A model generated the notes under the pieces. That model was not told the origin of the DNA. It ran no database searches and worked only from the letters and a program-made list of their open reading frames with translations. Below, piece after piece: positions 45,748 through 64,000 of a DNA stretch of 64,000 nt; within the stretch, counting starts at the first letter, position 1; each line of letters starts with the position of its first letter. The position numbers and the translations under genes were made by a program. This DNA comes from Patescibacteria group bacterium (lineage in GTDB: Bacteria > Patescibacteriota > Microgenomatia > PFEM01 > JAHIFH01). The stretch lies in contig DATKWU010000009.1 in NCBI GenBank assembly GCA_035529375.1, positions 289,111 through 353,110 of the forward strand. Reading direction: 5' to 3'.

Positions 45748-45791
45748 CTAGTCTGCGGAAATAATGCGGTAAATATGCAGGAAATAATTTT

Positions 45792-47622: not shown

Positions 47623-48708
47623 ATGGCCAAAAAGAGAGTTGATACCAAAAAAATCATTGAAAAAGGAGGAAAGCAGGGTTTCATTACCCAAGAAGAAATC
47701 CTCAAGCTTTTTCCTGATGCCGAAGAAAGGGTCGAAGAATTAGACGAACTCTACGCTAATTTATTGGCTGAAGGGGTTGATGTTTTTGAATCCGTTACTG
47801 AAGAAGAGATGGCTGAAGATGAAAAAGCGACCACGGAATTAGCTAAAGAACTAGAGGTTCTAGCGACCCTGGAAGACAAAACCCTAACCGATCCGGTCCG
47901 AATGTACCTTAAAGAAATAGGGAGAATACCTCTTTTAACGGCGGAGCAAGAAATTGACCTTGCTCAAGGAGTGGAGAAAGGCAGTCGGGCGGCTAAAAAG
48001 AAATTGATTCAATCCAACTTAAGACTGGTGGTTTCGATTGCCAAAAAGTATGTAGGTAGAGGGATGAGCTTCCTTGATCTTATTCAAGAAGGTAATCAAG
48101 GTTTGATGAGAGCGGTAGAAAAATATGATTGGCGGCGAGGCTATAAATTCTCCACTTACGCCACCTGGTGGATTAGACAGGCGATTACCCGAGCGATTGC
48201 TGACCAAGCCAGAACCATTAGAATTCCGGTTCATATGGTCGAAACGATTAACAAACTGATTCGAACCTCAAGAAAACTAGCTCAACAATTAGGCCGAGAA
48301 CCAATGGCTGAGGAAATTGGTAAAGAAATGGAACTCGAGCCAGATCGAGTCAGAGAGATTTTTAAGATTGCCCAAAACACCACTTCCTTAGAAAAACCAG
48401 TCGGTGATGAAGAAGATTCTCTTTTAGGTGATTTTATCGAAGACACCTCTCAACCTTCACCAGTGGACCAAGCTTCAAAACAGCTCTTAAAAGAAAACAT
48501 TGAAGAAGTTTTAGAAAGCCTTTCGGACAGAGAAGCCAGAGTCTTGAAAATGAGATTTGGTTTAGATGGTTATCAACCAATGACCTTAGAAGAAGTAGGC
48601 AGAGAATTTGGGGTGACCAGAGAAAGAATTAGACAAATTGAAGCCAAAGCCCTAAGAAAACTCAAACACCCTTCAAGAAGAAAAAAACTTCAGGATTATC
48701 TTGAGTAA
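47623..48708 (+). CDS. rpoD: RNA polymerase sigma factor RpoD (primary sigma-70 family)
   Basis: Region 2 [56 protein letters not shown]. Region 4 [31 protein letters not shown] at 47623 preferred over the TTG at 47581 given in the track. Confidence 0.9.
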
Positions 48709-48726
48709 GAGCGATAGTTACTCAAC

Positions 48727-49449
48727 TTGATTTACTTTGTTCGATATGCTAAAAATGGATTAATGGGGTATGCAGGTAAGTTAGAAGAAAAAAGACAAGC
48801 TCTTGAACTTCGCCAAAAAGGCATTTCTTATGGTGAAATCCAAAAAAAAGTTCCAGTTTCTAAAGACACACTCAGTCGTTGGTGTCGAGATGTAATCCTG
48901 GTTCCCTCTCAGATGGAGAGATTGAAAAAGAGAAGACTAAGAGGAGCAGAGAAGGGAAGAATAATTGGTGCAAAAAAACAACAACGGGATCGAATTAAAA
49001 GAACCAAAAGATTAATAAAGGAAGGCAAAAGAGAAGTTGGAAAATTGGCCAAGAGAGATAGATTTACGGCTGGAATAGCCCTTTATTTGGGTGACGGGTA
49101 CAAATCAGATAAAAGCATTGGTTTTTCAAATTCTAATCCTCAAATAATTTCTTTTATGATGAGATGGTTTCGGGAGTTTTGCCAAGTTCCTGAAGAAAAA
49201 TTTCGTGGACAAATTTGGATTCATGAAGGTTTGGATGAATTGAAAGCAAGAAGATATTGGTCGAAAATTACCAGTATTCCAATAGGTCAGTTTCAAAAAA
49301 GTTATATTGCTAAGAATAAAAAAGAAAGCAGAAAAGTTAGGAAAAAATTACACGATTATGGTGTATTTGCAATTAGAATCTCTAGTGCGGAGAGACAGAG
49401 AAAAATTCTTGGTTGGATAGCTGGTATTTTAGGCAAGGAATTAGTATAA
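48727..49449 (+). CDS. HTH-domain protein with a LAGLIDADG-like motif (candidate free-standing homing-endonuclease-like protein)
   Basis: N-terminal HTH (LELRQKGISYGEIQKKVPVSKDTLSRWCRD). Basic linker. Then TAGIALYLGDGYKSDKSIGFSNSNPQIISFMMRWF, which resembles the LAGLIDADG block. Ends 20 nt before the intron-containing tRNA. Confidence 0.45.
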   Translation: MIYFVRYAKNGLMGYAGKLEEKRQALELRQKGISYGEIQKKVPVSKDTLSRWCRDVILVPSQMERLKKRRLRGAEKGRIIGAKKQQRDRIKRTKRLIKEGKREVGKLAKRDRFTAGIALYLGDGYKSDKSIGFSNSNPQIISFMMRWFREFCQVPEEKFRGQIWIHEGLDELKARRYWSKITSIPIGQFQKSYIAKNKKESRKVRKKLHDYGVFAIRISSAERQRKILGWIAGILGKELV

Positions 49450-49468
49450 TATCGTTGTATTTTGACAA

Positions 49469-49753
49469 TCCGCGGTAGCTCAATGGTAGAGCGACTGCCT
49501 GTCAATTTGGCAGCTTTTCGCTGAAAGGCGAATTGAAAAACCGGGTGAATTCAGGGAAACCTAAATCTTTTTGATATGGTAATCCTGAGCCAAGTCCGCC
49601 CAGGCGGAAAGGTGCAGAGACTAGGTGAGTACACCTTAAAGCGCCCGGCACCTAAAGCTTAAAGCTACGGTGATGAGATAGTCCACACCTTTTGGAAACA
49701 AAGGGATTTGTGTAAGCAGTTGGTTGTAGGTTCGAATCCTACCCGCGGAGCCA
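49469..49753 (+). tRNA. tRNA (Asp-GUC or Asn-GUU; exon junction ambiguous) interrupted by a ~210-nt group I intron in the anticodon loop
   Basis: 5' half TCCGCGGTAGCTCAATGGTAGAGCGACTGCCTGTCAA (acceptor, D-arm, 5' anticodon stem ACTGC, loop CTGTC...). 3' half (A)AGCAGTTGGTTGTAGGTTCGAATCCTACCCGCGGAGCCA (3' anticodon stem GCAGT, T-arm, acceptor CCGCGGA pairing perfectly with TCCGCGG, discriminator G, CCA). The two halves are separated by ~210 nt. Confidence 0.7.
49504..49715 (+). other. Group I self-splicing intron (putative) within the tRNA anticodon loop
   Basis: Contains the conserved group I core elements R (GCAGAGACTAGG, 49615-49623) and S (GATGAGATAGTCCAC, 49676-49684), whose GACTA/TAGTC segments can form P7. 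The sequence GGCAG at intron nt 4-8 is complementary to the exon anticodon-stem CTGCC (possible P1/IGS). Exact boundaries +/-3 nt. Confidence 0.55.
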
Positions 49754-51298
49754 GTTGGAACTTAATATACCAAGTTTAGCCTCATTCAAAACTTGGAGTG
49801 CCGGAGTGTATTCGACCTCCATTATTTTCTTATCTTGTACCCATATCTTTTGGAAGAAAAAGTGTAAATAAGCACGCTTGTGATCAATGTCCGAATCCTC
49901 ATAGGTTTGAACAATATTTCGAGTTAGTTTAAGTACTTCATTTATGATCGAAGTATCAATGGTATTGGTCTTATCCTGTTCCACAAGTTCTTTCTGAATG
50001 ACTAGAGCTTCTGCATCTAGTTGAGTATTATATTTTTGGAGTTGTTCGACAGGAAGTTTGTTATCAAAGTAGTCTTTTTCAATCTTTATTCTTTTTTGGT
50101 CAACTGCATCCCTTTTGTTATATAGAGCTTTTTTAGCGCGCTGAATACGATCAATACTTTCGTCATAAACACGAGTGATATTGGTTTCTACTGCTTGGAT
50201 GAATTCATCAGTAAAGGCTAGCTTATCGACCTCTTGTTTTACTTGGTCCTCAAGATTAGTGAGTAATACATATCTTGAAGGGCAACCACCACGCTTACCA
50301 GTTTGAGAGCAGTGATACATTCCAATCTTTCCATTACCAGTTTTATATTTTTCGTGATAATGCCACTCTGCAACATAACGTCTGCCACAGTCTTTGCAAA
50401 AGACAACGCCCCGAAGAAGAAAGTTGTGTTTTCTCTTGCGAAGACCATAATCGCCTTTTTCTGAGAGTATCTTTTGAACTAAATCAAAAGTCTGCTTATC
50501 AACTAGAGGTTCGTGTTTCCCCATACCTTCATGTCCTCCGTGTTTCATCCAACCCCAATAAAATGAATTCTTAAGCATATTGCCAACAATAGAGTATTGA
50601 ATCGGTTTCCCTTTTCTACCTGTTACTCCATTTTTGTGGAGGTACTGGCGAATATCATAAATTGCATAGTCACGAGTTGCATACAATTTATAAGCCTGTC
50701 GAACAAAAGGAGCTATAGCAGGATCAGGAATGACAATCTTTTTGTCGTAAGAGCCTTCAGGATTTTTATTGACAACATTTAAGTAACCCAATGGCGCCCA
50801 CGAAGGATAATATCCTGCTTTAAACTTTTCAGAAGCTGTTTGTTTGACCTTGTAGCTAGTCATACGAGGAAAGAAAGCGTTCATTACCGCCATCATTTCA
50901 TTCATGGTTCTACTTACTGGATCACCATTAATTACTCCTGAAAGAGGAACGATTTTAACTCCACATTTTTCTAGTTCGCTAACAATGAAACAGTATTCGA
51001 AAGTGTCACGAGAGAGTCGGGATATGTCTTGCACAACAAGATACGCAATATCTTTTTTGTAACATCTACTTAGTAATGCTTGGAAGCTTGGTCTGTTTAA
51101 AGTAGTACCTGAAATCCCATTATCAACGTAGCAATCCTCAGCTAGGTACCCACCTAACTCTTGAATCTTCTCTAGTGCCTTTATTTGTTGGGTTTCAATA
51201 CTAAGATTATCTACCTGATCCATTGTGGACACTCTAGCGTAGATGATGCATTTTGGTTTACTTCCGTGATCGCTATTTATATCTTGTTTTAACTGCAT
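49739..51298 (-). CDS. Large serine recombinase (resolvase-type catalytic domain + recombinase domain + zinc ribbon), integrase of the element
   Basis: N-terminal IYARVSTMDQ catalytic-Ser motif and SRLSRD. Large C-terminal domain with CKDCGRRY...C zinc ribbon and a coiled-coil. Its 3' end overlaps the left direct repeat and the tRNA 3' exon. Confidence 0.85.
   Translation of the reverse strand: MQLKQDINSDHGSKPKCIIYARVSTMDQVDNLSIETQQIKALEKIQELGGYLAEDCYVDNGISGTTLNRPSFQALLSRCYKKDIAYLVVQDISRLSRDTFEYCFIVSELEKCGVKIVPLSGVINGDPVSRTMNEMMAVMNAFFPRMTSYKVKQTASEKFKAGYYPSWAPLGYLNVVNKNPEGSYDKKIVIPDPAIAPFVRQAYKLYATRDYAIYDIRQYLHKNGVTGRKGKPIQYSIVGNMLKNSFYWGWMKHGGHEGMGKHEPLVDKQTFDLVQKILSEKGDYGLRKRKHNFLLRGVVFCKDCGRRYVAEWHYHEKYKTGNGKIGMYHCSQTGKRGGCPSRYVLLTNLEDQVKQEVDKLAFTDEFIQAVETNITRVYDESIDRIQRAKKALYNKRDAVDQKRIKIEKDYFDNKLPVEQLQKYNTQLDAEALVIQKELVEQDKTNTIDTSIINEVLKLTRNIVQTYEDSDIDHKRAYLHFFFQKIWVQDKKIMEVEYTPALQVLNEAKLGILSSNWLRG
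49748..49771. repeat. Left copy of the 24-bp direct repeat GAGCCAGTTGGAACTTAATATACC (tRNA 3' end + 18 nt); putative attL
   Basis: Exact 24/24 match to 60378-60401. The match extends (with a 1-nt indel) by AAGT. Confidence 0.6.
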
Positions 51299-51349
51299 AT
51301 GTTTTACTTACTTCTAAGTGAAATGCCCTATATCTATATGATCAAGCAT

Positions 51350-51658
51350 TTACTCACTAAAGGCACTCCGTAAGGGCTTTCTGATTCGTTCTTCCTGTAC
51401 TTGATCAATTAACAACTGACACCATTGTTGGGCAAGACTATCAATGTCGATACGGGGGGTAGTATCTTTAGAAAAAGGCAACGGGCAAGATAACTGTGTC
51501 GCTTTAGTGGGCTTGTTAACCCTTCCTTTTATCCCTCTTTTTGATTTCATAAGGGCAGGTGTACTACTTTTTTCATTTCTATTAACTTTTTTATTAGAGT
51601 CTTGAAACTCAAGGCTATTGACTCTTGAAATAGTGTTGTTTTCTAATTTTGTAGTCAT
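51350..51658 (-). CDS. Hypothetical small basic protein (element cargo)
   Basis: 102-aa ORF, K/R-rich (SKRGIKGRVNKPTKA). Confidence 0.4.
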   Translation of the reverse strand: MTTKLENNTISRVNSLEFQDSNKKVNRNEKSSTPALMKSKRGIKGRVNKPTKATQLSCPLPFSKDTTPRIDIDSLAQQWCQLLIDQVQEERIRKPLRSAFSE

Positions 51659-51689
51659 AGGTTTATAGTCAATAAATCAATACAATCTT

Positions 51690-52421
51690 TTAGTTTTCTG
51701 AGCTAATAATTAAATGTTTCTGATATTCATTCCAATCACCATCAAAAAACACATCGACAATATTTTTCTCTTGTTCATTATTTTCGATTGCTACCTTTTC
51801 AGTTACGTTTTCATCAATCCACCTCATATCATCAGGAGTCAAACCTTCATAATGACCTTCTTTATAAATCTTTTGATATTCGGAGTCGCTTCTAACATCT
51901 TGTTGAATAAGAACCATCCTATTAGAACCAATAGGAAAAGAACCTAACTCACCCTTAAAGGAACCTAAAGCTTTAGAGGGTATATTCAAGGCCAAATCCG
52001 TTACTTTTTTAGGAATTATTTTCGCTTTTTCAGGATAAAAACAGACATTTTGAAGAATATTATCGAGAGTTTGAGAAAGTTTTTCCGATTTAGCAAAGTC
52101 AGCCGCTCTGCCTCCAAATGAAACACCGTATCGTTCAGGGAATTTTATTTTGAAAACTGATCTTTTCTTATCAACTATTTCAATGAAGCTTTTATTAAGA
52201 AGTCCATTACGCCAATCATTAACAGTTTCAATACCTTTATTGAAATATTCTGCTACGACTTCGGGATAAGCGATGAATTGACCATAGTTATCGTGTTTAT
52301 GGTCAAAATCCATTGAGTCTAGGTAGTATTCAAACAATAGAAATTCTTGAGAGGTTAAGATTCTCTTTTGCAGGAGAATCCATCTGTTTCTGTGTGTTAC
52401 TCGATAACCATTTAACTTCAT
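51690..52421 (-). CDS. Hypothetical protein (element cargo)
   Basis: 243-aa ORF. No recognisable motifs. Confidence 0.45.
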   Translation of the reverse strand: MKLNGYRVTHRNRWILLQKRILTSQEFLLFEYYLDSMDFDHKHDNYGQFIAYPEVVAEYFNKGIETVNDWRNGLLNKSFIEIVDKKRSVFKIKFPERYGVSFGGRAADFAKSEKLSQTLDNILQNVCFYPEKAKIIPKKVTDLALNIPSKALGSFKGELGSFPIGSNRMVLIQQDVRSDSEYQKIYKEGHYEGLTPDDMRWIDENVTEKVAIENNEQEKNIVDVFFDGDWNEYQKHLIISSEN

Positions 52422-52485
52422 GAGAACATTCTCTCTAAAAGCAAATGGGAGTTTTATACCGATTCAGAAGCCTGTAAATTGCAGG

Positions 52486-53271
52486 TTAGCGAGTGAGAAG
52501 ATTGGAATATGTTTTTACTGCCTTGAGAACATCAAGATCAGTGGTCAATTCGTTCTCGTATTTTTTGACGTATTCATCGGCTATTTGTTGATATGTTTTT
52601 CCTTTTATCCTCTCCCAGTACCATTCACGGTATTTTCGAGTGTTAGGAGTAACATCAACTCTTGGTCTATAGTATGACAATCGCTTATCAGTTTTCATCA
52701 GTTCTTTTGCTTTGCGGAATTCTTCTTTTACTTCCTCATAAGTGGATGTTGGGGACACAAATATTGCAACTCGTTCAAATGTTTCCCATGCCCCCATTTC
52801 ACCGAAATTAACCACTTTTGCTTCCGTGGGTTTAAAGTGTTTGTCATCAACTGCACCGCAGAATATTGCTTGTTCGATAGCTTCGACAAAATAGGTTGGC
52901 CTGTTAAATTCAAAGCAGATAAAGTTACATTCAGCATCTAGCATTATTGGTATATCGTTTTTGATACTAATAAGTTCGTAGAAATTAGGAAATGACTCCT
53001 CAAGTTCGCCGATTTTAGAATACTTAGCCAAGTTAACCTCAACAGCTTCTTGAAAATGTGTGTCGAACAGATGTGAATCAAATTCTTCGTCAAAATCATT
53101 AACAGAGAATAAGTTGGGAACAAAATATGTCCTTCTTAGGTCAGGAAGTAAATCAATGAAGGCAGGCTTGTCGAACAGGAAAGCAAGCTCTTGATAGTAA
53201 ACGTCGTTGTTTGTTCTTATGTCGATTTTGAAGTCTTGAAGATAGGCTTTGTCGTTCTTTCTAATTTTCAT
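52486..53271 (-). CDS. Hypothetical protein (element cargo)
   Basis: 261-aa ORF. No recognisable motifs. Confidence 0.45.
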   Translation of the reverse strand: MKIRKNDKAYLQDFKIDIRTNNDVYYQELAFLFDKPAFIDLLPDLRRTYFVPNLFSVNDFDEEFDSHLFDTHFQEAVEVNLAKYSKIGELEESFPNFYELISIKNDIPIMLDAECNFICFEFNRPTYFVEAIEQAIFCGAVDDKHFKPTEAKVVNFGEMGAWETFERVAIFVSPTSTYEEVKEEFRKAKELMKTDKRLSYYRPRVDVTPNTRKYREWYWERIKGKTYQQIADEYVKKYENELTTDLDVLKAVKTYSNLLTR

Positions 53272-53379
53272 AATTGTCTGTTTCTATTCTACTAAAAAGA
53301 GTCATCGGTTACGATGACTCTTATAAAAATTACGAAAGATTAAAAGAGAGTGGATTATTTATTTCACAAATAGTATTGA

Positions 53380-55107
53380 TTAGTTACTAGTGTGTTGTGG
53401 GGCTCTTTTTAATAGATTGAGTAGTTCTCCTTTTTGAATTTGAGCTACTTGTTCGGGCATAAGAGTAAACGAAAATTTAGGATTATCTGATTCGGCTGCT
53501 AAAATAGCCGTACCGATTCTTGTATCATCAATATAAATACTCACAAAATAAATTCCTGGTTTTGGTATTTTAAAAATCATATCACCATCTACGGGACTGA
53601 TGACAAAACTGGAAGAAGAAACAACTGTGGCTGTGTCAACAAGAAATGACTCTCTTGTTGAAGCATTAACTAGCCTAATTTCAAGATGATGCGTTCCTAT
53701 TGGTAGCCTAAAAGCACTTGCAATATGTGCTCTGAGCGGAAGTGGATAGTTTTTCCAGTACGACACCATAAATTGATTTTCAAACTTTAGATAGGATTCT
53801 TCGTATATGGACTTTTCACAGATAGTAAAGTAAACCAGTTCAGCTTTGCCAGACTTTTCAATCACTTCGTCTACGCATTTCCTTAAATGATCCATCATTA
53901 TTTCTTGTTGTTTTTTCATAAACACATCTTTTTTATCAGGGGAGGGAACATCTTCTTTAACATGACCAAAATACATTGCACGCCTTCCTATTAATTGTTT
54001 GTCAATATAACATTCCAATATTGCTGGACCAGGTTTTTCTACGGATAAGTAAATCTTGGAAACAGTATCAATTTCTTCTGGTAAATACTCAATGTGAACA
54101 TCTTGACTATATACTTCTTTTTCTTCGAAATTTTTCAATACGAATCTTAGCTTATGATCACCAGCAGAACCCCAAAGACCAACTGCCGCAATTAACTCAA
54201 CCGAAAAAGGGAATTTATGCGAAGCAATATTCGTTAGTGGATTAAAAAATTCAATAGTTCCTGGACTAATTTTAATTCCGGTGCAAGTTAAAAAATAAGT
54301 TAGGTGCCATTTAACAGCTGATTCTCCAGGAGGCATTTCAAAATCATGAAACTGTAACCTTTTTGCAGGTTCAGTGATTAATTTTATTGGCTCAACTAGT
54401 TGAGTGGTTATATTTTTAGTTAAATCGTGTTGCGTCCAAACACCCTTTTCCATTTCAATGCTTTTAGAGTTAGGTTCTTTATCTGGGTCAATGTCAACAA
54501 ATCCATACCACAAGGGTCTTATCCCATCTGATTCGATTAAGATTGTCTGGAATAATCCCCCAACGGTATCTATTCCCTGTCTTCCTAACTCACTTCCTAG
54601 ATTAATGTAGAGCAAATCAGCCTTTTGTTTTAAAGATTGATTAGGTTTTTCAAATAGGTTTGCGTTTTTTCGAAGATAACCAGCAACGATATTACCTGAA
54701 CCAATAACTGTAAATCCTTCATTGACTTTTTGGGGAGCAAAGGATGGAAACTCAAAAGAAGATACTTCAATTTTGCCTGAATTATTAATTGTTCCAAGGA
54801 TAAAAGCTAAGGGCTCTTTTATTTTTTTATAATAGAATTTTGCTATCCTACATAGCTCTGATACCATTACGTTAGGAATATTTAACTTTGATTTTTTCTT
54901 TAGCGTTCCTCTTAGGCTATTTATCACTAACGCTGCTGTTTTAACATCACCAGCGTATCCAATTACCATTCTATTTCCTAAAGGCAATATTTTTTGTAAT
55001 TTATCCTCAAGAATGTTAGCGTTGATTCTTTTATCCACCCAAGTCGCTCGGCTATCAGAAATCATCACTGTTCCTTCTTTGAATTTGTAGGCTAAAACCA
55101 TTGTCAT
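53380..55107 (-). CDS. HslV/proteasome-beta-like Ntn-hydrolase domain fused to a ~370-aa C-terminal domain of unknown function (element cargo)
   Basis: N-terminus M-TMVLAYKFKEGTVMISDSRATW (Thr directly after the initiator Met, D-x-R/Q-AT). RMVIGYAGDVKTAALVINSL and TVIGSGNIVAGYL parallel HslV TTIVSV...AGDGQATLG, VIAGFAGGTADAFTLFE and IAIGSGGNYALSAA. Confidence 0.6.
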   Translation of the reverse strand: MTMVLAYKFKEGTVMISDSRATWVDKRINANILEDKLQKILPLGNRMVIGYAGDVKTAALVINSLRGTLKKKSKLNIPNVMVSELCRIAKFYYKKIKEPLAFILGTINNSGKIEVSSFEFPSFAPQKVNEGFTVIGSGNIVAGYLRKNANLFEKPNQSLKQKADLLYINLGSELGRQGIDTVGGLFQTILIESDGIRPLWYGFVDIDPDKEPNSKSIEMEKGVWTQHDLTKNITTQLVEPIKLITEPAKRLQFHDFEMPPGESAVKWHLTYFLTCTGIKISPGTIEFFNPLTNIASHKFPFSVELIAAVGLWGSAGDHKLRFVLKNFEEKEVYSQDVHIEYLPEEIDTVSKIYLSVEKPGPAILECYIDKQLIGRRAMYFGHVKEDVPSPDKKDVFMKKQQEIMMDHLRKCVDEVIEKSGKAELVYFTICEKSIYEESYLKFENQFMVSYWKNYPLPLRAHIASAFRLPIGTHHLEIRLVNASTRESFLVDTATVVSSSSFVISPVDGDMIFKIPKPGIYFVSIYIDDTRIGTAILAAESDNPKFSFTLMPEQVAQIQKGELLNLLKRAPQHTSN

Positions 55108-55252
55108 AACTCTCTTTTTCCTCCTCTTGTATTATATCCGAACTATGAGTTTATATACCCGAATAAATTTATTACAATACAAAAAGAAAACTAAAGAAAA
55201 TTCAACCTTTGTCGTTGTGTTATTTCCCCATTTTTGGTTTAATATAAACCAT

Positions 55253-58000
55253 ATGAGCAACATGGGAGAACCATTATCAGGAGCAACACCACTTGAAGCA
55301 ATAAAACCGCCAGTTGTTGCCACTTCTCCAGAAAATCAACCCATTAACCCACTTGCTGAACAATACCAATCTAAAGCACAAGAACTAAAGATTAAACCTG
55401 TGCAGAGTGGTGAGTGGATTGCAACTGATGGCGTTGAATATATTCAATGGGGTGATGAGAAACATCAGTTTGCTTCCAATACAGATGAACAAACTTTCCC
55501 AACCAGATTAAATCAAGTCGGAACCTATGATTCTAATAATGGCACGCTTGCTTTTGTTGATGAAAAAGGCGTAATGCATGCAGGACACTCAACGGATGCA
55601 AATTTTCAAGCATTAGAACAGGCAGGATATAGACGTGGTGGTATTTGGGTTCCATTCTCCAACGGAGAAGTGCCAGCAGATCCAGAATTAAGAAAGCAAT
55701 ATATAGAACTTAGGGAAAAGGGGAGAGAAATAAATAAAAAAGCAAATATTGAACGACACCTTCATGTTTATAGTGAAACCGCTGAGAGAAAAGGAATAAA
55801 ACCTGTTGAGGGGGGTCTGTTTATGATGGTTGATGGTATTGAATACAGACATTGGGGAAACGAAACAGGGACAATAGACACCAATACAGACGGTTATAAC
55901 ATGGCTATTCGAAGAGTTGAACAAGTGGGAACTTTCGATGGTAATAACGGAAGAATGGCTTTTGTGGATGGACAAGGAAGAATGTGGGCTGGTGCAGCTA
56001 CTAGCGAAAACTATGAAGCAATAAATAAAGCTGGTTATACAAGGGGTGGTATCTGGGTTCCCTTCTCTAATGGAGAAATGCCAACCGATAGAGCAACTTA
56101 CGAACAACTAAGGGATGTTTTAACTGGAAAACACGCAGAACAATTAAAAGCCGAAAGGGATGCTAGGGTTGAAGAAATAATTGAAGGAAGAAAAGTTTTA
56201 TTTGGTGATACTGCGATATTGCCAGATAGGAACGAACTATTTGTCAAAGTTGCAGATAGAGCAGAGCGACAATACATAAACGAAGCTGAATTAGTTAAGG
56301 AAAAGTTACAACCCAGAACTGAAAAAGATAACGCTGGTTTTGAACGAAGTATATATACAATTAACGGTGTTACCTTTTCTTTTAAAGGTCGAGAAGAATT
56401 ACCAACTTATCAAACATTAACAAGTTCAAGAACTACGCTATTGGGAGAGGCTCCGAATTGGGTTGAAGTAGAAGATTATCAAAAATATCAAGAACAATTA
56501 AGACAAACTCAAACCCAAGAAGGTGCTACACAACATTTTGTAACAAATAAAACGCTTCTAGGTGTTGTTGAATTAGCAATAACATTAGGAAGTAAAGATA
56601 GTTCACTAACACAACTTCGTGGGGAATTATATAAAGGAGTTTATAGCCAAAGAGCATTGACACTATTAGATGCTTTAGTTGATTCTAATTATGGTGATTC
56701 GATCAGATATGGTGGTAAACCAGAAAGCCAAGCTGAAGCGGTGGTTTTATTATCTTTACTTGGTGATATTCAAGCACAAACTGCTGTTGCTGAAAATGTT
56801 GAGTCGCAAAGAGAATACGAGACAAGCAAACAAGCTCATCGTGAGCGAAGAAAAATTGACAATGAACCATTAAAACCACAGGAATTGTGTGCCGTACATG
56901 CTACAAGGTATAAGCCAGAAGCTACAGAAGATGGGGATTTTTTAATTCCTACTACTTTTGATGCAACTAAAGGAAAGGTATTGCGAAATACAGTTCACAC
57001 AGCGTTAAATCACAAAGTTGCAGGTCATATGTATGGTTCTTGGGGCGATGCGGGATATGTGGTTATTTCGCCATTTGAGAAAATGATGGAAGCAAATGGA
57101 GTTCCAGCAGTTTTGAATACCGTTGATACCTATTGGGCAACTAACCCTGGCGAACCATTAGTTTTTGCTAACGGAACTCTTGTGGCTCCTGGTGGTAATG
57201 AAGTTCAAGGATTGTATCAGCAAGAAGGAAATGTTGTAAAGTTTAAATCGTCTGGTTTAGATAGACAGGATTTAATAAATCTAACTGCCTATTCTAGGCA
57301 AAATGGTTATCAAGATAGTTTTTCAAGAAGTATAGACGAAGCATTAAGCGGAGCGTTACATCCTTATGGTTCTGCTATGGAATTAGCAGATCAGTGGGAT
57401 TTTAGTACTACCCAACTAGCTCTAAATCAATTCCTTTACCATGCAGATAATAGTTATGGTCATCAACCTGCACTTCTAAATTTGTTGACAGTAGAAATTG
57501 AGGGTCAACCGGAATCAAATATCGAAACCAGACTCAAAAATTTAATTGAGCAGTCAGGGGCAATATCGGGATTAAAGCCAGAAGTTACTGATAAAGATAG
57601 TGCTGTTACTACATTTGCAAAAACTCTCGCTGATAGAATTAGGTCAACAATGTTTTCTGAATTGAATGAGTTAACGGTTAGGGAGGCAATTAGACAGAGG
57701 GGATTTGCAGTTCAACCTGGAGGAATGTGGGCTTGGGGTGATAGTTGGACGGTAACTGCAGAAACAGGTGCTTTAGGAGAAGAATTAGGAGTGCCTGTTG
57801 GAGCGCATACCAACATGGTAGACCATACGTTAACAGAAAGATTTTCTGGAGCGATTAGTCAAGCCACAGAGGGAGAACGTGGTAATGGGAAATTTAATTG
57901 GACAAAATATAATGCAAACTATGATGATTTAGTAAAGGACTTGGACCCAAAAACTCGCAGAGTTCTTTATGCTTCAGGACTTTTGACCGCTAGAGGATAA
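55253..58000 (+). CDS. Large hypothetical protein with two tandem ~125-aa repeats (element cargo; divergent from the Ntn-hydrolase gene)
   Basis: Repeat 1 GVEYIQWGDEKHQF...NNGTLAFVDEKGVMHAGHSTDANFQALEQAGYRRGGIWVPFSNGEVP. Repeat 2 GIEYRHWGNETGTI...NNGRMAFVDGQGRMWAGAATSENYEAINKAGYTRGGIWVPFSNGEMP. Start moved to ATG 55253 (MSNMGEPLSG), preceded by TTGGTT-17-TATAAA. The track ORF from 55127 would leave only 19 bp to the divergent gene. Confidence 0.55.
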   Translation: MSNMGEPLSGATPLEAIKPPVVATSPENQPINPLAEQYQSKAQELKIKPVQSGEWIATDGVEYIQWGDEKHQFASNTDEQTFPTRLNQVGTYDSNNGTLAFVDEKGVMHAGHSTDANFQALEQAGYRRGGIWVPFSNGEVPADPELRKQYIELREKGREINKKANIERHLHVYSETAERKGIKPVEGGLFMMVDGIEYRHWGNETGTIDTNTDGYNMAIRRVEQVGTFDGNNGRMAFVDGQGRMWAGAATSENYEAINKAGYTRGGIWVPFSNGEMPTDRATYEQLRDVLTGKHAEQLKAERDARVEEIIEGRKVLFGDTAILPDRNELFVKVADRAERQYINEAELVKEKLQPRTEKDNAGFERSIYTINGVTFSFKGREELPTYQTLTSSRTTLLGEAPNWVEVEDYQKYQEQLRQTQTQEGATQHFVTNKTLLGVVELAITLGSKDSSLTQLRGELYKGVYSQRALTLLDALVDSNYGDSIRYGGKPESQAEAVVLLSLLGDIQAQTAVAENVESQREYETSKQAHRERRKIDNEPLKPQELCAVHATRYKPEATEDGDFLIPTTFDATKGKVLRNTVHTALNHKVAGHMYGSWGDAGYVVISPFEKMMEANGVPAVLNTVDTYWATNPGEPLVFANGTLVAPGGNEVQGLYQQEGNVVKFKSSGLDRQDLINLTAYSRQNGYQDSFSRSIDEALSGALHPYGSAMELADQWDFSTTQLALNQFLYHADNSYGHQPALLNLLTVEIEGQPESNIETRLKNLIEQSGAISGLKPEVTDKDSAVTTFAKTLADRIRSTMFSELNELTVREAIRQRGFAVQPGGMWAWGDSWTVTAETGALGEELGVPVGAHTNMVDHTLTERFSGAISQATEGERGNGKFNWTKYNANYDDLVKDLDPKTRRVLYASGLLTARG

Positions 58001-58065
58001 CTATAGAAAAGAAAAAAGACCAATGATTAGTCGGTCTTCTTTCGAATATACCTTTTCCAAATTTC

Positions 58066-58317
58066 TCACTTTTTGGAAACTGCTTCTTTTTTAATTTTAA
58101 CCTCTTTAATTTCGTTATTCACCGTTGTTGTTTCTTGAACCTGTTTTGCTTCTAGTTTCTTTGCTTTGCGTCTTGCTAAATATTCCTTGTGTTTGGCACG
58201 ACCTTTTTCACTTTGTTGGTAGCGAAGCCTTGCCTCTTTCCCTTTTGAACTTTGAGCGTATTTTTTTTGGGCTTGTGTCCAACCTTTCTGTTTTTTGTTT
58301 TTAGTCGTTTCTTCCAT
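58066..58317 (-). CDS. Small lysine-rich basic protein (83 aa; element cargo)
   Basis: Strong SD AAGGAGGTGA 7 nt upstream of the ATG. K/R-rich (KKQKGWTQAQKKYAQSSKGKEARLRYQ...). The alternative overlapping frame 58176-58418 lacks an SD. Confidence 0.5.
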   Translation of the reverse strand: MEETTKNKKQKGWTQAQKKYAQSSKGKEARLRYQQSEKGRAKHKEYLARRKAKKLEAKQVQETTTVNNEIKEVKIKKEAVSKK

Positions 58318-58520
58318 GTTTTCGTCACCTCCTTACTTGGTCTAAATGTGTTAATATAATAATTATCAAACACCCTATAAAAGGGTTCACGGGGTAAGAC
58401 TAGGTAAGACGGGGGCAATTCTTCAAGGTTTAGTAAAAGTTCGTAGTGTTTCCTGAAAATTAGGACAATAAAAGAAAATTATGAAAATATCTTTTTATTG
58501 TTATTAATTAAGGAGGCATT

Positions 58521-59429
58521 ATGAAAAATATTTCAATATTATTTCCCAAATCGGAGTTTACGTCCGATCAACTGCAAAAATTAGGTTTCGCAGGACAAGT
58601 TTCTTTTATAGAAAGTGGTAGTGAGAGTTCACTAAAAGATTTAATTAAGCTCTCAAAAGATGCCGACATACTTGCGTTTAGCCCAGATAAAATTGGCAAG
58701 TGTGCTTCAGAATGGTTGCTCAAAATACTTGAAGCCTCACCGAAAGTAAAAGGGTTAGCTTTAAATACAACCCATGCTAACTATGTTGATATGGGTTATT
58801 GCAACGAAAGACGCATAAGAGTTTTTACAATTCTTGATGACTCTGCTGAGGCAATCGCCGAGCATGTCATATTACTTATCTTAGGCTGTGCTAAAAGATT
58901 GTTTATTAATGATCGAAGAACTTACAGGCGAAAGTACCAACCAGAACTAGGATTTGAAATCAGAGGTAAAAGCCTAGGCGTTATCGGTTCAAATTTGGAG
59001 GCGCAAAGGGTTGTGTCGCTAGCAAAAGCAATAGGAATGACAGTATATGCGACAGAACGCCTTGAGGGAGCAATTAGGAAACCATCCGTGCTTCAATCAG
59101 ACATTATTACAATTCATTTACCTGATACAGAAGAAAATAAAAAGTATTTGTCTAAAGAAAAAATTGCACTACTAAAAGATGGGGCGATTGTCATAAATCT
59201 TTCGAGCAGGGATATAGTCGATGAAAAAGCTATGGCGGAAGCATTAAAGAAAAGACTGGTTGACCAATATGCTTTTGAGGCGGAAAGCATGAAGAAATCA
59301 CCGCTTGGGGAAAGTGAATTTGCTCTAATGTTTAAGCCATTTTGTAAATTCACAAAAGAATCACTTAGGAGAAACAGGAGTCTGTGGGTCATAAATATTT
59401 CTAACTTGGCTGGGAAACCGACTTCCTAA
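58521..59429 (+). CDS. D-isomer-specific 2-hydroxyacid dehydrogenase-family protein (NAD-binding domain; possibly non-catalytic)
   Basis: GKSLGVIGSNLEAQRVVSLAKAIGMTVYATER (Rossmann), then ITIHLPDTEENKKYLSKEKIALLKDGAIVINLSSRDIVDEKAMAEAL, which matches the 2-Hacid_dh_C pattern. SD AAGGAGG. Confidence 0.55.
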   Translation: MKNISILFPKSEFTSDQLQKLGFAGQVSFIESGSESSLKDLIKLSKDADILAFSPDKIGKCASEWLLKILEASPKVKGLALNTTHANYVDMGYCNERRIRVFTILDDSAEAIAEHVILLILGCAKRLFINDRRTYRRKYQPELGFEIRGKSLGVIGSNLEAQRVVSLAKAIGMTVYATERLEGAIRKPSVLQSDIITIHLPDTEENKKYLSKEKIALLKDGAIVINLSSRDIVDEKAMAEALKKRLVDQYAFEAESMKKSPLGESEFALMFKPFCKFTKESLRRNRSLWVINISNLAGKPTS

Positions 59430-59595
59430 CCGAGTATATGCGATAGAAATCAATTGTGAGCCATTCTTATAAGAGGTGAAACAATGCGATACCTAAAACA
59501 GGTATCTTTCATTCGTTTAGCCTCAAACGCTTGTTTAATCGCATTGTACGAGGTTATCGCTATGGTAATTAGCCTGAAAGTATTAAAATATAGCT

Positions 59596-60255
59596 ATGGA
59601 CATGTTTATTAAATGGCTATCAGAAAATTACGGGTGGGTTGTAAGCCTACTGATACAAGGCTTTATCGCATATCATGTTTTCTTTCTTTCTCAGAAGTTA
59701 TCAAGTAAGGCTAGATTAGAACATAAAGAATCGATAAAGCGTAAGGCAGATGAGTTGTTGTCAGAAGTACGAAGGAAAAAACTAAATAGTGAGGTTTATT
59801 TAGTAAACATTAATAGATATTTCAAAGACTACCCATCAAACACAGAAAAAAGATTTGAAGGATATTCCCATATCAGAGCTGAAATAAAATCAACAAGATT
59901 TGATGGAATTGAGTTTTTTGCTGAACCACCCGTAGAAGTGTATAAAAAATCAAACGGAAGCCTATCTTTCAAGGGGACTAAGAAAGAAAAAGTATTTAAT
60001 GCTTATCCCGTTGGGGTTGTTCCTTATGAGTGGATTGAACATGTTGATATAAGTGGGGATGAATACGCTTATGTTCCATTATTCTATTGTTACTACAAAG
60101 GCAAAACAAACTGGAAGTTTTGGAAACGCTTCTTATTCTTTGGCTACCCCTATAAAAAGATGCTCTACTATAAATTGAGTGATGTGTATGACGAAAGAAA
60201 TGATCCTAGCGAAATGAAGTACTCGTATATCGATCAACCTATTGGGAAATTCTAA
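59596..60255 (+). CDS. Hypothetical N-terminally TM-anchored protein (element cargo)
   Basis: TM WVVSLLIQGFIAYHVFFL. Aromatic-rich C-terminus. Confidence 0.45.
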   Translation: MDMFIKWLSENYGWVVSLLIQGFIAYHVFFLSQKLSSKARLEHKESIKRKADELLSEVRRKKLNSEVYLVNINRYFKDYPSNTEKRFEGYSHIRAEIKSTRFDGIEFFAEPPVEVYKKSNGSLSFKGTKKEKVFNAYPVGVVPYEWIEHVDISGDEYAYVPLFYCYYKGKTNWKFWKRFLFFGYPYKKMLYYKLSDVYDERNDPSEMKYSYIDQPIGKF

Positions 60256-60264
60256 CTAACCGCC

Positions 60265-60382
60265 AGGCAAGGTTTCACTTTTTCTATTTCCTCTCTGATT
60301 TGAGCTACAAGCCTAAAGTCAGAGAAAGCCTTGATAATACAAGATAATTGCGTGGTTATATTAGAGGTGCGATCCTCGAGCC
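60265..60382. repeat. ~120-bp att-proximal sequence, copy A (partner at 63124-63250, ~70% identity)
   Basis: AGGCAAGGTTTCACTTT...CCTTGATAATACAAGATAATTGCGTGGTTATATTAGAGGTGCGATCCTCGAGC versus AGGCAAGGCTTCACTTT...CCTTGATAATATGGGAAAAACTCTTGGTTATATTAAGGTTTCGCCCTTCGAGC. Confidence 0.4.
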
Positions 60383-60401
60383 AGTTGGAACTTAATATAC
60401 C
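60378..60401. repeat. Right copy of the 24-bp direct repeat; putative attR
   Basis: Identical to 49748-49771. Confidence 0.6.
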
Positions 60402-60541
60402 CAAGTGCTTGTTAATACTTCAATAAAAACAAGCCTTAAATCGCCTCTAATAAAATCCCTTAGTTGTAAGGAAAAGTTGAAGCTAAACTTATAATTTTCT
60501 TTTGCTTGAGGTAAAATATAGGAAAGTGATATATTAGCGGT

Positions 60542-61003
60542 ATGAACAAAAATCTTTGGAACAAACAGACATTTTTGACTCTTGCCGGTATGTTGGCATT
60601 ATTTGCCGGACTTGCCGCCTTTTTTTATTATGAAGGCCTTGCGGGCAGGCCAATATACCTATTTGCAATAATAGCAGTGGCTGTTATCGTCGCTGCCGTT
60701 GCCGCGGTTTATTTGTACCTGTTGTCAAAGGGTAAAATCCAGCAAACAGGTCCGGATTACCGTTCTCTTTTTTTCTTGGGCCTTATGTTTTTTATCTTCG
60801 GCTCGCCAGAAAACCCTGCCTTTTATGCTATTGGCCTTGTGTTTGTTATTGCCGCTTTGGTCAACAGAAAGAAATGGAAAAAACAGCCCAAGCTAAGCGA
60901 ATTATCCCCAGCTCAAAGAAAATTCAGAATTGCCCTGATGATAGCTTTGGGGTTTTTGGTATTGGCTGGTTTTGTGGCTTGGTGGTGGTTCGATAAAATG
61001 TAA
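60542..61003 (+). CDS. Hypothetical polytopic membrane protein (4 TM)
   Basis: Four hydrophobic helices. Basic loop NRKKWKKQPK. Confidence 0.5.
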   Translation: MNKNLWNKQTFLTLAGMLALFAGLAAFFYYEGLAGRPIYLFAIIAVAVIVAAVAAVYLYLLSKGKIQQTGPDYRSLFFLGLMFFIFGSPENPAFYAIGLVFVIAALVNRKKWKKQPKLSELSPAQRKFRIALMIALGFLVLAGFVAWWWFDKM

Positions 61004-61061
61004 GTGTTGAAAATAAGTGCAAGACTAAATTTTCAATATTTGTTATTATGAACTTAACAAT

Positions 61062-61457
61062 ATGCAAAGCAGTGAATGGTATCAGCAATTAATTAGACCG
61101 TCGTGGTCTCCACCGTCTTGGCTTTTTGGTCCGGTTTGGACTTTTCTATATATTTTAATCGCTGTTTCCTTTTTTAAAGTATTTCAACTAACTTTTCAAA
61201 AAAAAGCCGCGTTTATTGTCGCACTCCCGTTTATTCTTAATCTCATCTTTAACTTTGCATTTACTCCCTTACAATTTGGATTAAGAAACAACTTTCTAGC
61301 TGCAATTGACATCCTCCTTGTTTTGGGCACTCTTGTTTGGGCAATGATTGCCATTTATCCTCATGCAAAATGGATTACTTTTATTCAAATTCCATATTTA
61401 TTGTGGGTTAGTTTTGCGACTGTTTTGCAGTTAACAATTACTTATTTAAATCGTTAA
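61062..61457 (+). CDS. TspO/MBR-family (tryptophan-rich sensory protein)-like membrane protein, short
   Basis: WYQQLIRPSWSPPSWLFGPVWTFLYILIA matches the TspO N-terminal signature. Only 131 aa. Confidence 0.55.
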   Translation: MQSSEWYQQLIRPSWSPPSWLFGPVWTFLYILIAVSFFKVFQLTFQKKAAFIVALPFILNLIFNFAFTPLQFGLRNNFLAAIDILLVLGTLVWAMIAIYPHAKWITFIQIPYLLWVSFATVLQLTITYLNR

Positions 61458-61458
61458 G

Positions 61459-61851
61459 ATGTTTATAAAAACTTATTTAATCACCCTGCCGGTATTTTTG
61501 GCAATCGACTTGGTTTGGCTGAGCCTAATCGCCAGGAAATTTTACGCCCAATACCTAGGTTATTTGATGAAGACAAATGTCAATTTTGCGGCAGCTGGCC
61601 TATTTTATTTGCTGTTTGTGGTTGGTTTGGTGATTTTCTCGGTTCTACCGGCACTAGAGAAAAATTCTTGGATTCAGGCTCTTTTTTTGGGAGCTTTACT
61701 CGGACTTGTCTCCTATGCCACCTATGATTTAACGAATTTAGCTACAATCAAAGACTGGCCGTTGTTGGTTACGATTGTAGACATAGTATGGGGAACAGTT
61801 TTGGGGGCCTCAGTTTCTCTGATTAGCTATTTTATTGCCACAAAAATATAG
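61459..61851 (+). CDS. Small polytopic membrane protein (DUF2177-like; assignment tentative)
   Basis: Four TM helices. 2-nt gap after the upstream gene. Confidence 0.4.
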   Translation: MFIKTYLITLPVFLAIDLVWLSLIARKFYAQYLGYLMKTNVNFAAAGLFYLLFVVGLVIFSVLPALEKNSWIQALFLGALLGLVSYATYDLTNLATIKDWPLLVTIVDIVWGTVLGASVSLISYFIATKI

Positions 61852-61857
61852 AAGAAA

Positions 61858-62634
61858 TTATCCTTTTTGAGGTAGGGGGATTAAAATACTAGTTTTCTTT
61901 TTATAATTCTGATACTTCTTGTTATCAGCAAATTTTTTGTCATATCTTTTTTCGAGTGGGGGAATGCCACTAACGAATAAGAGTATGAAGGTGATAAAAA
62001 ATGGGCCAATGATGGTTAACCATGACATTCCCCGGATGAAGGGTAGAACGAAAATAAATATTCCCCACCAACAAAGCATTTCCCCAAAATAATTAGGATG
62101 TCTTGAGTATTTCCACAAGCCCGTTTGAATCCACAGATTTTTATTCTTTGGCTTGTTTTTGAAGCTGAACTTTTGCCAATCAGAAATTGTTTCAATTATT
62201 AAGCCCAGAGCCCAAATTGCAACTCCTAAAATCATAATAAAATTTATTGTTTTATGTTCGGTGATACTTAATAAATAAATTGATGGCAGCATGATTGCCC
62301 AGACGACTAGGCCTTGGAAGAGCCAAAACTTTAAAAATTGGAGTGGTTTTTCTCTGATATTGTCAAAACGACTATCCTTTTTAATTTTTAAGATTCTAAT
62401 TAGGAGGTAAGAAATAAGTCTTATACCCCAAAAAATAACCATTACCGTTAGTAATATCTGGTAAAAATAGAATGTCTGGTTTTTAAGAAGGAATAGAAAA
62501 GCAAGTATAATAAAGGTCAGACCGTAGGTAAAATCAGTAAACTTGTCTGTTTTAAAAGAACTGGCTAAAACAAAAAATATGAGATTTATTCCTAGGCTGA
62601 CAAGTAAAGCTAGAAGGTAAATATTTATCATCAT
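61858..62634 (-). CDS. DUF1295/ICMT/PEMT-like polytopic membrane protein (steroid-5-alpha-reductase-like fold family)
   Basis: C-terminal WKYSRHPNYFGEMLCWWGIFIF (RHPxYxGE motif) after about 6 TM helices. Confidence 0.55.
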   Translation of the reverse strand: MMINIYLLALLVSLGINLIFFVLASSFKTDKFTDFTYGLTFIILAFLFLLKNQTFYFYQILLTVMVIFWGIRLISYLLIRILKIKKDSRFDNIREKPLQFLKFWLFQGLVVWAIMLPSIYLLSITEHKTINFIMILGVAIWALGLIIETISDWQKFSFKNKPKNKNLWIQTGLWKYSRHPNYFGEMLCWWGIFIFVLPFIRGMSWLTIIGPFFITFILLFVSGIPPLEKRYDKKFADNKKYQNYKKKTSILIPLPQKG

Positions 62635-62668
62635 GTCTTTATTATAAGTAAAATAAAGAATTATTGAT

Positions 62669-63106
62669 ATGCGATTATGGAGCCTACATCCTAAGTATTT
62701 TGATACAAAAGGTTTAGTTGCGGTCTGGCGAGAAAGTTTGCTGGCAAAAAAGGCTTTACAGGGTAAAACAAAAGGTTATACCAAGCACCCACAACTTATC
62801 CGCTTCAAAAATCACCCTTCTCCTTTAGAAGCTATTGATTGTTATTTATCTCACATATTCTTTGAGGCCAAAAAAAGAGGCTATAACTTTGAGAGAAGGA
62901 AAATTGGTAGGGTTTCTAGAAATATTAAGAAAATAAAAGTAACTTCAGGCCAAGTCGATTATGAGCTTAATCATTTAAAAAACAAGCTAAGGAAAAGAGG
63001 CTCTACCTTATGCAATAAAACAGTTAAAACTAAAAAGATTAAAGTTCACCCGTTATTTACAATCGTCATCGGTGACATTGAACCCTGGGAAAGACAAAAG
63101 CCCTGA
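62669..63106 (+). CDS. Pyrimidine-dimer DNA glycosylase-like protein (T4 endonuclease V-related family)
   Basis: N-terminus MRLWSLHPKYFDTKGLVAVWRESLLAKKALQGKTKGYTKHPQLIRF matches the family signature. Confidence 0.55.
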   Translation: MRLWSLHPKYFDTKGLVAVWRESLLAKKALQGKTKGYTKHPQLIRFKNHPSPLEAIDCYLSHIFFEAKKRGYNFERRKIGRVSRNIKKIKVTSGQVDYELNHLKNKLRKRGSTLCNKTVKTKKIKVHPLFTIVIGDIEPWERQKP

Positions 63107-63123
63107 AATGACTATTTTAGGAA

Positions 63124-63250
63124 GTTAAAGCTAGGCAAGGCTTCACTTTGGCAATCTCTTCCCTCAATTCCTGTACAAACCTGAAATCTTCAAAAACCTT
63201 GATAATATGGGAAAAACTCTTGGTTATATTAAGGTTTCGCCCTTCGAGCT
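63124..63250. repeat. ~120-bp att-proximal sequence, copy B (degenerate)
   Basis: See copy A. It ends ...CCCTTCGAGCTAGCC, a degenerate version of the attR junction ...ATCCTCGAGCCAGTTGG. Confidence 0.4.
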
Positions 63251-63304
63251 AGCCTCAGAAAGCTCCATTTATTGGATTTTTTTGGTCTGATATAATAAAA
63301 ACAT

Positions 63305-63792: not shown

Positions 63793-64000
63793 CCAGAGGT
63801 TTATGTCAATACGAATGCTGGTTTGCTTTGGTTAATTCCGAAATTTTCAAACATAATTTTGATGTCATTTAGGGTAATATCAAACTCAATATTTCTGTTG
63901 CAGAATAAGTCCTTTAGGGGGAGCCAGGAATAGAAAAGCCCAATTTAATGGGCTTTTCTGATTTGGTAAAATAGGAGTATGGGAAAGGAAAATGATATTT

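Follow-up and report, generated by a model that had tools for sequence, protein, structure and literature searches.

A large serine recombinase element at an intron-bearing tRNA-Asn gene of a Microgenomates-type bacterium, with a putative attP inside its own recombinase gene

Serine integrases are important genome-engineering tools, and the direction of their reaction is thought to depend on separate recombination directionality factor (RDF) proteins together with the coiled-coil domain of the enzyme; integrons in turn use IntI and attC. The use of tRNA and tmRNA genes by serine integrases was considered unreported by Mageeney et al. 2020, with 14 of 297 computational calls (PMC7192596), and Durrant et al. 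2022 make no mention of tRNA (PMC10083194). Known arrays of elements at tRNA genes are built by tyrosine integrases, which regenerate the core at both ends (PMC7192596). Splitting of an integrase gene by integration is described for the SSV-type integrases, tyrosine recombinases ‘so far restricted to archaea’ in which the split gives two inactive pseudogenes (PMC7253208), and in the mycobacteriophages BPs, Brujita and Charlie attP lies in the repressor gene and integration removes a C-terminal degradation tag (PMC3694055). Here we analyse a 64,000-nucleotide stretch of DNA (the window) from a Patescibacteria group bacterium (GenBank assembly GCA_035529375.1, contig DATKWU010000009.1, positions 289,111 to 353,110), and suggest that a 10.6-kb element within it, E1, was probably inserted into the 3' end of a tRNA-Asn gene by its own large serine recombinase (LSR), with attP lying inside the LSR gene, and that the 24-bp direct repeat at its ends arose from a half-site of an adjoining cassette, E2.

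Exact repeats at a tRNA 3' end had been put forward in the original prediction as the mark of an integrated element, and our analysis supports both the repeats and the placement. The 24-mer GAGCCAGTTGGAACTTAATATACC has exactly two copies in the window, at 49748-49771 and 60378-60401, and a search of the window that allowed up to 3 mismatches found no further one (chance expectation 0). The left copy begins at G71 of a tRNA-Asn(GUU) gene (49469-49753, plus strand), the integration target, which is made up of a 5' exon (49469-49502), a 210-nt intron at position 35/36 (49503-49712) and a 3' exon (49713-49753). ARAGORN called no tRNA at the integration site in the window because a group I intron interrupts the gene (Rfam RF00028, Intron_gpI, 99 bits, 49493-49705); the tRNA halves can be read directly, the 5' half from 49469 and the 3' half with its CCA ending at 49753, and the exon junction CTGT/intron/TAA (CTGT/...G/TAA) gives the anticodon GTT (GUU). 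In other genomes, homologs that have no intron are called by ARAGORN as tRNA-Asn(gtt). Introns at position 35/36 of Patescibacteria tRNA-Asn genes, overlooked by standard tools, were described in 2026 in a study that does not mention recombinases (PMC13011429), and the intron here, between anticodon positions 35 and 36, matches that class. The coincidence of this known intron class with an integration hotspot has had no prior discussion. Among the related loci, tRNA-Asn also bears the intron in L018 and L038 and is intron-less in L003, L010, L022 and L025.

The LSR gene of E1 (49739-51298, minus strand) encodes in its integrated, truncated form a protein of 519 amino acids, identical to HUV42856.1, and as had been predicted it reads through the left repeat into the tRNA. 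The protein's C-terminus reads ...GILSSNWLRG, of which RG comes from the tRNA, as does the stop codon (TAG, 49739-49741), which falls in the T-arm. By domain content and fold it is a member of the large serine recombinase family: Pfam identifies the Resolvase (PF00239, 3e-26, residues 18-162, with the motif IYARVST), Recombinase (PF07508) and Zn_ribbon_recom (PF13408) domains, a PHROG integrase is matched at 5.8e-86, and the Pfam scan found no Phage_integrase domain in any E1 protein. The homolog P0020, 60% identical to the window LSR, has a match to the catalytic domain of the TP901-1 integrase (6e-11), and its AlphaFold model, which has long helices (367-447) within the zinc-ribbon region, retrieves full-length LSR-att complexes (Bxb1, phiC31) in Foldseek with an E of 1e-21. 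The truncated enzyme retains all catalytic and DNA-binding domains. Comparison of the window gene with the integrated copy at L038 gives pS 0.33, pN 0.019 and a dN/dS of 0.044, showing that the integrated, truncated LSR gene is under purifying selection and is not decaying.

The continuation of this gene is found at the opposite end of E1. There the minus strand of a ~125-130 bp module, tail A (60252-60377), encodes a detached LSR C-terminal tail (EDRTSNITTQLSCIIKAFSDFRLVAQIREEIEKVKPCLAVS, then a stop) which prolongs the LSR reading frame through the repeat, and the protein reconstructed for an excised circle has 558 amino acids, ending ...GILSSNWLEDRTSNITTQLSCIIKAFSDFRLVAQIREEIEKVKPCLAVS. The module, which would also hold the P half-site of attP, has a second copy in the window at 63117-63248, and copies 85-93% identical occur at many other loci. 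LSR homologs fall into two length classes, one of ~520-535 residues with tRNA-derived ends and one of ~553-579 residues with conserved tails, and in P0020 and P0021 tail A is joined to the body at the same NWLE junction as in our reconstruction. Most of 120 LSR homologs end in residues that are antisense to the tRNA acceptor and T-arm (...L(P/R)(R/G).DSN..P, for example ...WLPRVDSNHEP), such ends are present even in homologs of only 30-36% identity, and 9 of 9 inspected LSR loci lie at tRNA-Asn; reading into the tRNA is a trait of the whole LSR clade. Moreover, within the cluster of LSRs of at least 90% identity the tRNA-encoded ends differ (WLPR, WLPD, WLPREDSNLEP, WLPHVDSNHEP), and several alleles of tRNA-Asn are thus occupied by the same enzyme. 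Homologous left junctions, in the order tRNA-Asn, 24-mer and LSR 3' end, are found at L003, L010, L022 and L038, the last of which carries a 97%-identical LSR on an intron-bearing tRNA-Asn, with cargo that is different beyond the first neighbouring gene.

Taken together, these data lead us to propose the following course of events. E1 (~49750-60379) would be an integrative element of a Microgenomates-type bacterium of the candidate phyla radiation (CPR), put into the 3' end of tRNA-Asn by its own LSR. Its attP would lie within the 3' end of the LSR gene, where the crossover GA of the tRNA strand would correspond to the TC of the Leu codon CTC in W-L-E (TGG CTC GAG), with inverted half-site motifs ~12 bp to either side, as dyad symmetry and comparison suggest. 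Recombination with attB at tRNA G71-A72 would split a 558-codon gene such that 517 codons remain beside the tRNA, which adds two residues and a stop, and the last 41 codons (the linker and one helix) are moved 10.6 kb away to the right end. E1 would have been inserted on the tRNA-proximal side of the older E2, whose left end would be the same half-site with a decayed LSR 3' end, and a further remnant, E3, would lie behind E2. The attP circle junction expected from this scheme is 60377/60378-60401/49772 (...GCGATCCTC GAGCCAGTTGGAACTTAATATACC AAGTTTAGCC...), and the expected E1-free junction is 49747/24-mer/60402 (...CCCGCG GAGCCA...ATATACC CAAGTGCTTG...).

Our preferred interpretation is that loss and regain of the tail makes properties of the enzyme, either stability or reaction direction, depend on the integration state. 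By analogy with the integration-dependent immunity of the mycobacteriophages (PMC3694055) the tail might act as a degron or stability tag; other options are that it determines the direction of the reaction, or that it has no function as protein. In the AlphaFold model of P0020 (predicted local distance difference test score, pLDDT, 82) a linker modelled at low confidence (513-531) corresponds to the att-encoded residues, and beyond the final zinc-ribbon hairpin the tail is predicted as one helix (528-558). The C-terminal residues of many tails are small and hydrophobic (...PAIA, ...PAVA, ...PALA), and gene callers annotate detached tails as orphan proteins of 34-74 amino acids in several CPR lineages. 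Other tail families, B, C, D and E, are carried by further long-form homologs, tail B being contiguous with LSR bodies in P0017, P0019, P0050 and P0052. We had considered that these long forms represent excised forms, and rejected this, as L034 shows at least tail B on a window-type body to be a tandem-junction chimera.

The strongest competitor to our interpretation holds that attP overlaps the gene's 3' end through mere genome compaction, the tail being dispensable and the module kept for a role as DNA (the P half-site, possibly with promoter or accessory sites). It can point to an integrated enzyme that tolerates arbitrary tRNA-encoded C-termini of 2 to ~40 residues, to LSR-less cassettes that have no gene to complete and still keep the whole ~130-bp module, and to the invariant DNA blocks CCTTGATAAT and TGGTTATATTA in tail A. 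However, substitutions in the tail are coding-like: by the Nei-Gojobori method tail A has a median dN/dS of 0.34, falling to 0.03-0.16 within subtypes, whereas 4 of 5 control frames give ~1.0-1.25; its replacements are conservative, and ~16 independent copies, some of them lacking any LSR body, keep the tail-A frame open over 38-59 codons. In addition at least four unrelated tail families are each conserved at the protein level, and a subtype that we call ‘ENHN’ has lost the att core and yet kept the tail in frame. In this subtype a 9-nt in-frame deletion (AAC TGG CTC, residues N-W-L; L029 11540-11690) removes the crossover core and fixes the fusion of LSR body and tail A, and the junction is seen also in P0005, P0012, P0040 and P0066. 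It persists across species at 52-68% identity, and this suggests that the ‘ENHN’ enzymes function at full length and that their att site is a different one or has been lost. On balance we regard compaction as rather unlikely. At the other extreme, we can only speculate that the two isoforms, an excised one of 558 residues with the C-terminal helix and an integrated, tail-less one of 519, set direction or lifetime in place of an RDF, that tRNA-Asn in Microgenomates is an integron-like platform run by serine recombinases, and that an inserting cassette donates a new tail to the resident integrase; this fuller scheme we hold to be doubtful. No E1 cargo protein matched a known RDF family in the Pfam, PADLOC and PHROG scans, RDFs being too diverse to exclude by sequence.

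Two further observations concern the tails. P0117 (377 amino acids) has a tail-C-like peptide (...LRAFENVTQTEFLKIRWQLI...) fused to DDE transposase domains (PF00665, rve) and may be another chimera made at an att junction. A candidate sigma-70 promoter in the tail module, judged by eye, was dropped, its spacing being ~20 nt.

The position of the exchange can be narrowed from the geometry of the junctions. The attR, which has the form of a P-O-P' junction (60353-60403, plus strand) and includes the right repeat copy, contains an inverted repeat with the arms TGGTTATATTA (60353-60363) and TAATATACCCA (60393-60403) and a 29-nt spacer, and its dyad centre, 60378, is the first base of the repeat. 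The uninterrupted LSR gene of L028 has the same dyad geometry, centred on CTC/GAG. The attL and attR sequences become identical precisely from 49748/60378 onwards, the bases just before being different (49747 g, 60377 c). At two loci where LSRs of other families occupy tRNA-Asn, the junctions have only 9-10 bp in common (GCGGAGCCA in L004, GGGGGAGCCA in L034), and the identity blocks of the three independent elements (window, L004, L034) overlap in GAGCCA. In several copies of tail A, unrelated DNA takes over immediately beyond GAGC. An encoded full CCA is absent in 5 of the 6 other tRNA genes of the window, and the CCA of this tRNA-Asn is therefore plausibly the TGG codon of the element. Because of the dyad centre, the GAGCCA overlap, the divergence after GAGC and the CCA-less tRNAs we take the exchange to occur at the repeat's left edge, with GA at tRNA G71-A72 (49748-49749) as the putative crossover dinucleotide. 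The left repeat copy, core of attL (49748-49771, plus strand), would then consist of the 2-bp crossover, GCCA as the tRNA end and an 18-bp right half-site P' (49754-49771), whose minus strand codes for the LSR residues G-I-L-S-S-N and which ends exactly at the distal motif CTTAATATACC. The 18 bp would be duplicated because E1 adjoins an older LSR-less cassette that begins with the same half-site. The dyad and the GAGCCA overlap would suit the short att site of an LSR, but the local identity between attL and attR in the window is 24 bp; the repeat is probably not a long crossover core.

The original prediction had noted that long direct repeats at a tRNA usually mark tyrosine-integrase islands and are atypical with a serine integrase; our data do not support taking the 24-bp repeat for a long core of that kind. 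As an alternative for the LSR itself it would mean that the 24 bp are a true long attB/attP core, the host natively having GTTGGAACTTAATATACC after tRNA-Asn, with the exchange taking place anywhere within it. The perfect conservation of the 18-mer across species with differing tRNA-Asn acceptor stems speaks for this, as do the many loci (L011/L021, L013, L015, L018) at which tRNA-Asn and the 18-mer are followed by unrelated sequence. Almost all of these, however, have a tail-A module 0.7-1.9 kb downstream and so are occupied by mini-cassettes, not empty; furthermore the dyad is centred on the margin of the 24-mer and not within it, the other LSR families share far shorter blocks between their junctions, several tail modules diverge immediately after GAGC, and the 18-mer not only codes for GILSSN but runs on into further LSR-coding homology. 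A long core therefore seems to us unlikely.

The neighbouring cassette accounts for the right-hand copy of the repeat in our preferred reading. Past the second repeat, on its right side, the sequence remains homologous to LSR 3' ends for ~28 nt with two 2-nt deletions, and beyond this remnant it switches to one common to L025 and L007; since the homology extends past the repeat, the right-hand copy appears to be part of E2. This older, LSR-less cassette (60380-63248, plus strand) starts with the P' half-site and the frameshifted remains of an LSR 3' end (to ~60430), carries genes for a 153-amino-acid protein, TspO_MBR, DUF2177, DUF1295 and Pyr_excise (within 60542-63106), and has as its right end the second tail-A module (minus strand). 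L002 has an E2-like cassette between the same kinds of ends, with homologs of the window open reading frames (ORFs) 61062-61457 and 61459-61851. Behind E2 lies E3 (63249-63926, plus strand), a short decayed cassette with a deaminase-like ORF, which ends in tail B (WLPLKDLFCNRNIEFD..., ~63853-63926, minus strand) joined to GGAGCCA; the original tRNA-downstream DNA likely starts at 63927, and a hairpin after the array (63933-63960) was not called by the terminator scan. The E2 cargo looks light- or UV-related, with TspO/MBR, DUF2177, the steroid-reductase-like DUF1295 and the pyrimidine-dimer glycosylase Pyr_excise.

Similar arrangements recur elsewhere and support tandem insertion. L034 has, in order, tRNA-Asn, an overlapping 500-amino-acid LSR of another family (...SWLPRVDSNHEPCR, then the stop), 6 kb of cargo and tail B, which is fused at W-L to a window-type LSR body and is the right end of the tRNA-proximal element; L033 and L029 have arrays similar to it, and in L029 a single-gene cassette stands between tRNA and LSR. 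Including E2, we found nine LSR-less cassettes (0.7-2.9 kb, often single-gene) with a P' half-site at one end and a tail-A module at the other: L002 2888-4367, L004 5570-6297, L005 1327-3202, L008 (reverse complement) 2788-3501, L010 150-983, L015 81-832, L021 (reverse complement) 6585-7429, L027 122-2013 and window 60380-63248. At tRNA-Asn such mini-cassettes line up in arrays like those of integrons, and their mobilisation presumably occurs in trans. From the order of the parts, the locus in the window would be a tandem array with the newest element nearest the tRNA.

The 24-mer was found in five species-representative genomes and in 22 metagenome stretches, all CPR/Patescibacteria-like, and protein matches name Daviesbacteria, Woesebacteria, Roizmanbacteria and Microgenomates. 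Four of the loci (L001, L002, L003 and L005) come from third-party annotation (TPA) metagenome-assembled genomes labelled ‘uncultured Gammaproteobacteria’, one of which is a 615-kb chromosome; they have CPR-specific loci, and the labels look wrong. The original prediction had named a constant gene set of uniform composition at this tRNA, with no empty-site variants, as the picture of an ancient fixed region; we find that the cargo at this tRNA differs in relatives and that composition is not uniform, but no same-species empty site was found. The candidates for empty sites (L011/L021, L013, L015, L018 and L027) were rejected, most of them having the downstream tail-A module already described, and the closest to an E1-free state is L025, in which tRNA-Asn, the 24-mer and E2-like sequence follow one another in another organism, on a contig that stops after 80 nt. 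Look-ups with a protein of the flank and with the first protein of E2 returned only E1-containing contigs and short unitigs. In IMG/VR the 24-mer scan gave 0 matches, and the protein scan gave relatives of only 23-35% identity and no viral episomal form. From one independent sample (Logan SRR8554643) we obtained two unitigs: L040 (10,618 bp, near the size of E1) was considered as a circle and rejected, since it is linear, equals window 49722-60339 and has no terminal overlap. It breaks at 60339, inside the tail module, and the other, L045 (window 48655-49750), ends 2 nt from the inferred crossover; unitig breaks at 49750 and 60339 are compatible with graph branches at the ends of the element and would fit alternative junctions in that population, which is suggestive and no proof. 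That E1 is a fixed, immobile remnant, its LSR disabled by the insertion as in archaeal ‘suicidal’ integrases and its repeats mere relics, would agree with the unvarying context within the species, with the failure to find an empty site or a circle and with a tail physically apart from its gene, but is quite improbable given a truncated gene that has all its domains and a dN/dS of 0.044 against another integrated copy, half-sites that are both intact, exact repeats, LSRs at least 90% identical in several tRNA-Asn alleles with different cargo, and a detached tail that is itself under purifying selection.

Several points nonetheless weigh against insertion by the element's own LSR at an attP within its gene, likely as we consider it. 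The species yielded no allele free of E1, which is in place in 9 of 9 contigs that have the gene, nor was a circular or attP form of E1 found, and the exact 558-residue protein is absent from the collection. The many loci with tRNA-Asn, the 18-mer and then unrelated DNA could also mean that the host carries the 18-mer natively. Recombination between attP and attL is not a reaction of canonical LSRs, and serial insertion at the tRNA-proximal junction would need relaxed recognition of the right half-site. As to the tail, the antisense frame that shares its wobble positions is also low (pseudo-dN/dS 0.36), the helix of the tail is modelled with no more than moderate confidence (pLDDT 58-72), and the ‘ENHN’ subtype keeps body and tail fused in chromosomes, so that splitting is not universal in the family.

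In composition E1 is foreign to its host, in line with the earlier remark that it is richer in AT than its flanks: its GC content is 0.365 against 0.393-0.397, and its tetranucleotide distance to the host, 0.245, is an outlier compared with host segments of equal size (0.139 +/- 0.014, maximum 0.166). The LSR is adjoined by three conserved core genes on the minus strand (51350-53271), o102 (51350-51658), o243 (51690-52421) and o261 (52486-53271), which have a weak PHROG match, o243 with a weak DnaD-like N-terminus; their homologs stand beside related LSRs in L029 (o243 58%, o102 46%), in L034 and L036 (o261 36-37%) and in L038 (o102 83%). The variable cargo (53380-60255, mixed strands) has five ORFs and, largely as had been noted from the sequence, is mostly uncharacterised. 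It comprises o575 (53380-55107, minus strand; 575 amino acids, its N-terminal domain a proteasome-like Ntn hydrolase and DUF6941 matched weakly), a large ORF of 951-957 amino acids that contains an internal duplication and matches no family (55127-58000, plus strand), o83 (58066-58317, minus strand), a 2-hydroxyacid dehydrogenase (58521-59429, plus strand) and o219 (59596-60255, plus strand). PADLOC gave no match on nine E1 ORFs, and PHROGs gave nothing informative on the E1 cargo. There are no phage structural or conjugation genes in E1, and it can therefore not be called a prophage or an integrative and conjugative element. About 4 kb upstream of the island, window 42867-45748 holds a tmRNA gene (tag GNPKVANYAYAYA) and six tRNA genes (Ser x4, Arg x2), and this cluster is syntenic in L029 together with the flanking DnaG and sigma-70 genes.

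These observations matter in several respects. If a gene is indeed cut and rejoined by its own reaction, this would be a compact, self-contained way to link the properties of an enzyme to its integration state, and earlier reports of such splitting are confined to archaeal tyrosine integrases and to mycobacteriophage repressors. The work also documents a clade of tRNA-targeting serine integrases, a use of tRNA described as essentially unreported, and identifies the cassette arrays at tRNA-Asn as a hotspot of horizontal gene flow in CPR bacteria, whose mobile elements are very little known and whose tRNA-Asn is often missed by annotation because of its intron. In practice, when a serine-integrase element is flanked by a long direct repeat, the repeat may be a half-site duplicated by tandem insertion and is not necessarily a long core. 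In the literature searched, the coverage of which is incomplete so that an earlier description is possible, we found no description of these elements in CPR bacteria.

The unusual features of this locus are tRNA targeting by an LSR, an attP inside the LSR ORF and arrays of LSR-less cassettes bounded by attP halves, and each can be set against a known system. Like the enzymes of other LSR elements (Bxb1, phiC31, A118/LI, TP901-1) the LSR of E1 has catalytic, recombinase and zinc-ribbon domains with a coiled-coil insertion, and E1 would resemble these elements in a short dyad-symmetric att site with a short identity around a putative central dinucleotide; it differs from them in its tRNA 3'-end target, in an attP within the integrase ORF and in its serial-insertion arrays. 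With the SSV-type (type I, ‘suicidal’) archaeal integrases it has in common an attP that is translated within the integrase gene and a gene split by integration at a tRNA, as well as hybrid integrases made from pieces of different origin, whereas the E1 enzyme is a bacterial serine recombinase that would lose only its last 41 residues, and its truncated gene is under purifying selection. In phages of the BPs type, similar to E1, an attP in coding sequence gives different C-termini in the viral and integrated forms; there, however, the repressor is split, the integrase is a tyrosine integrase and the effect has been shown experimentally, while in E1 it is the integrase itself that would be split. 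Finally, the E1 locus would share with arrays of tRNA islands and with integron cassettes the serial insertion at one site, the newest element nearest the target, and its cassettes are like those of integrons small, recombinase-less and bounded by recombinase recognition sequences, but here the cassette ends appear to be the two halves of a serine-recombinase attP, one of them a 130-bp coding module.

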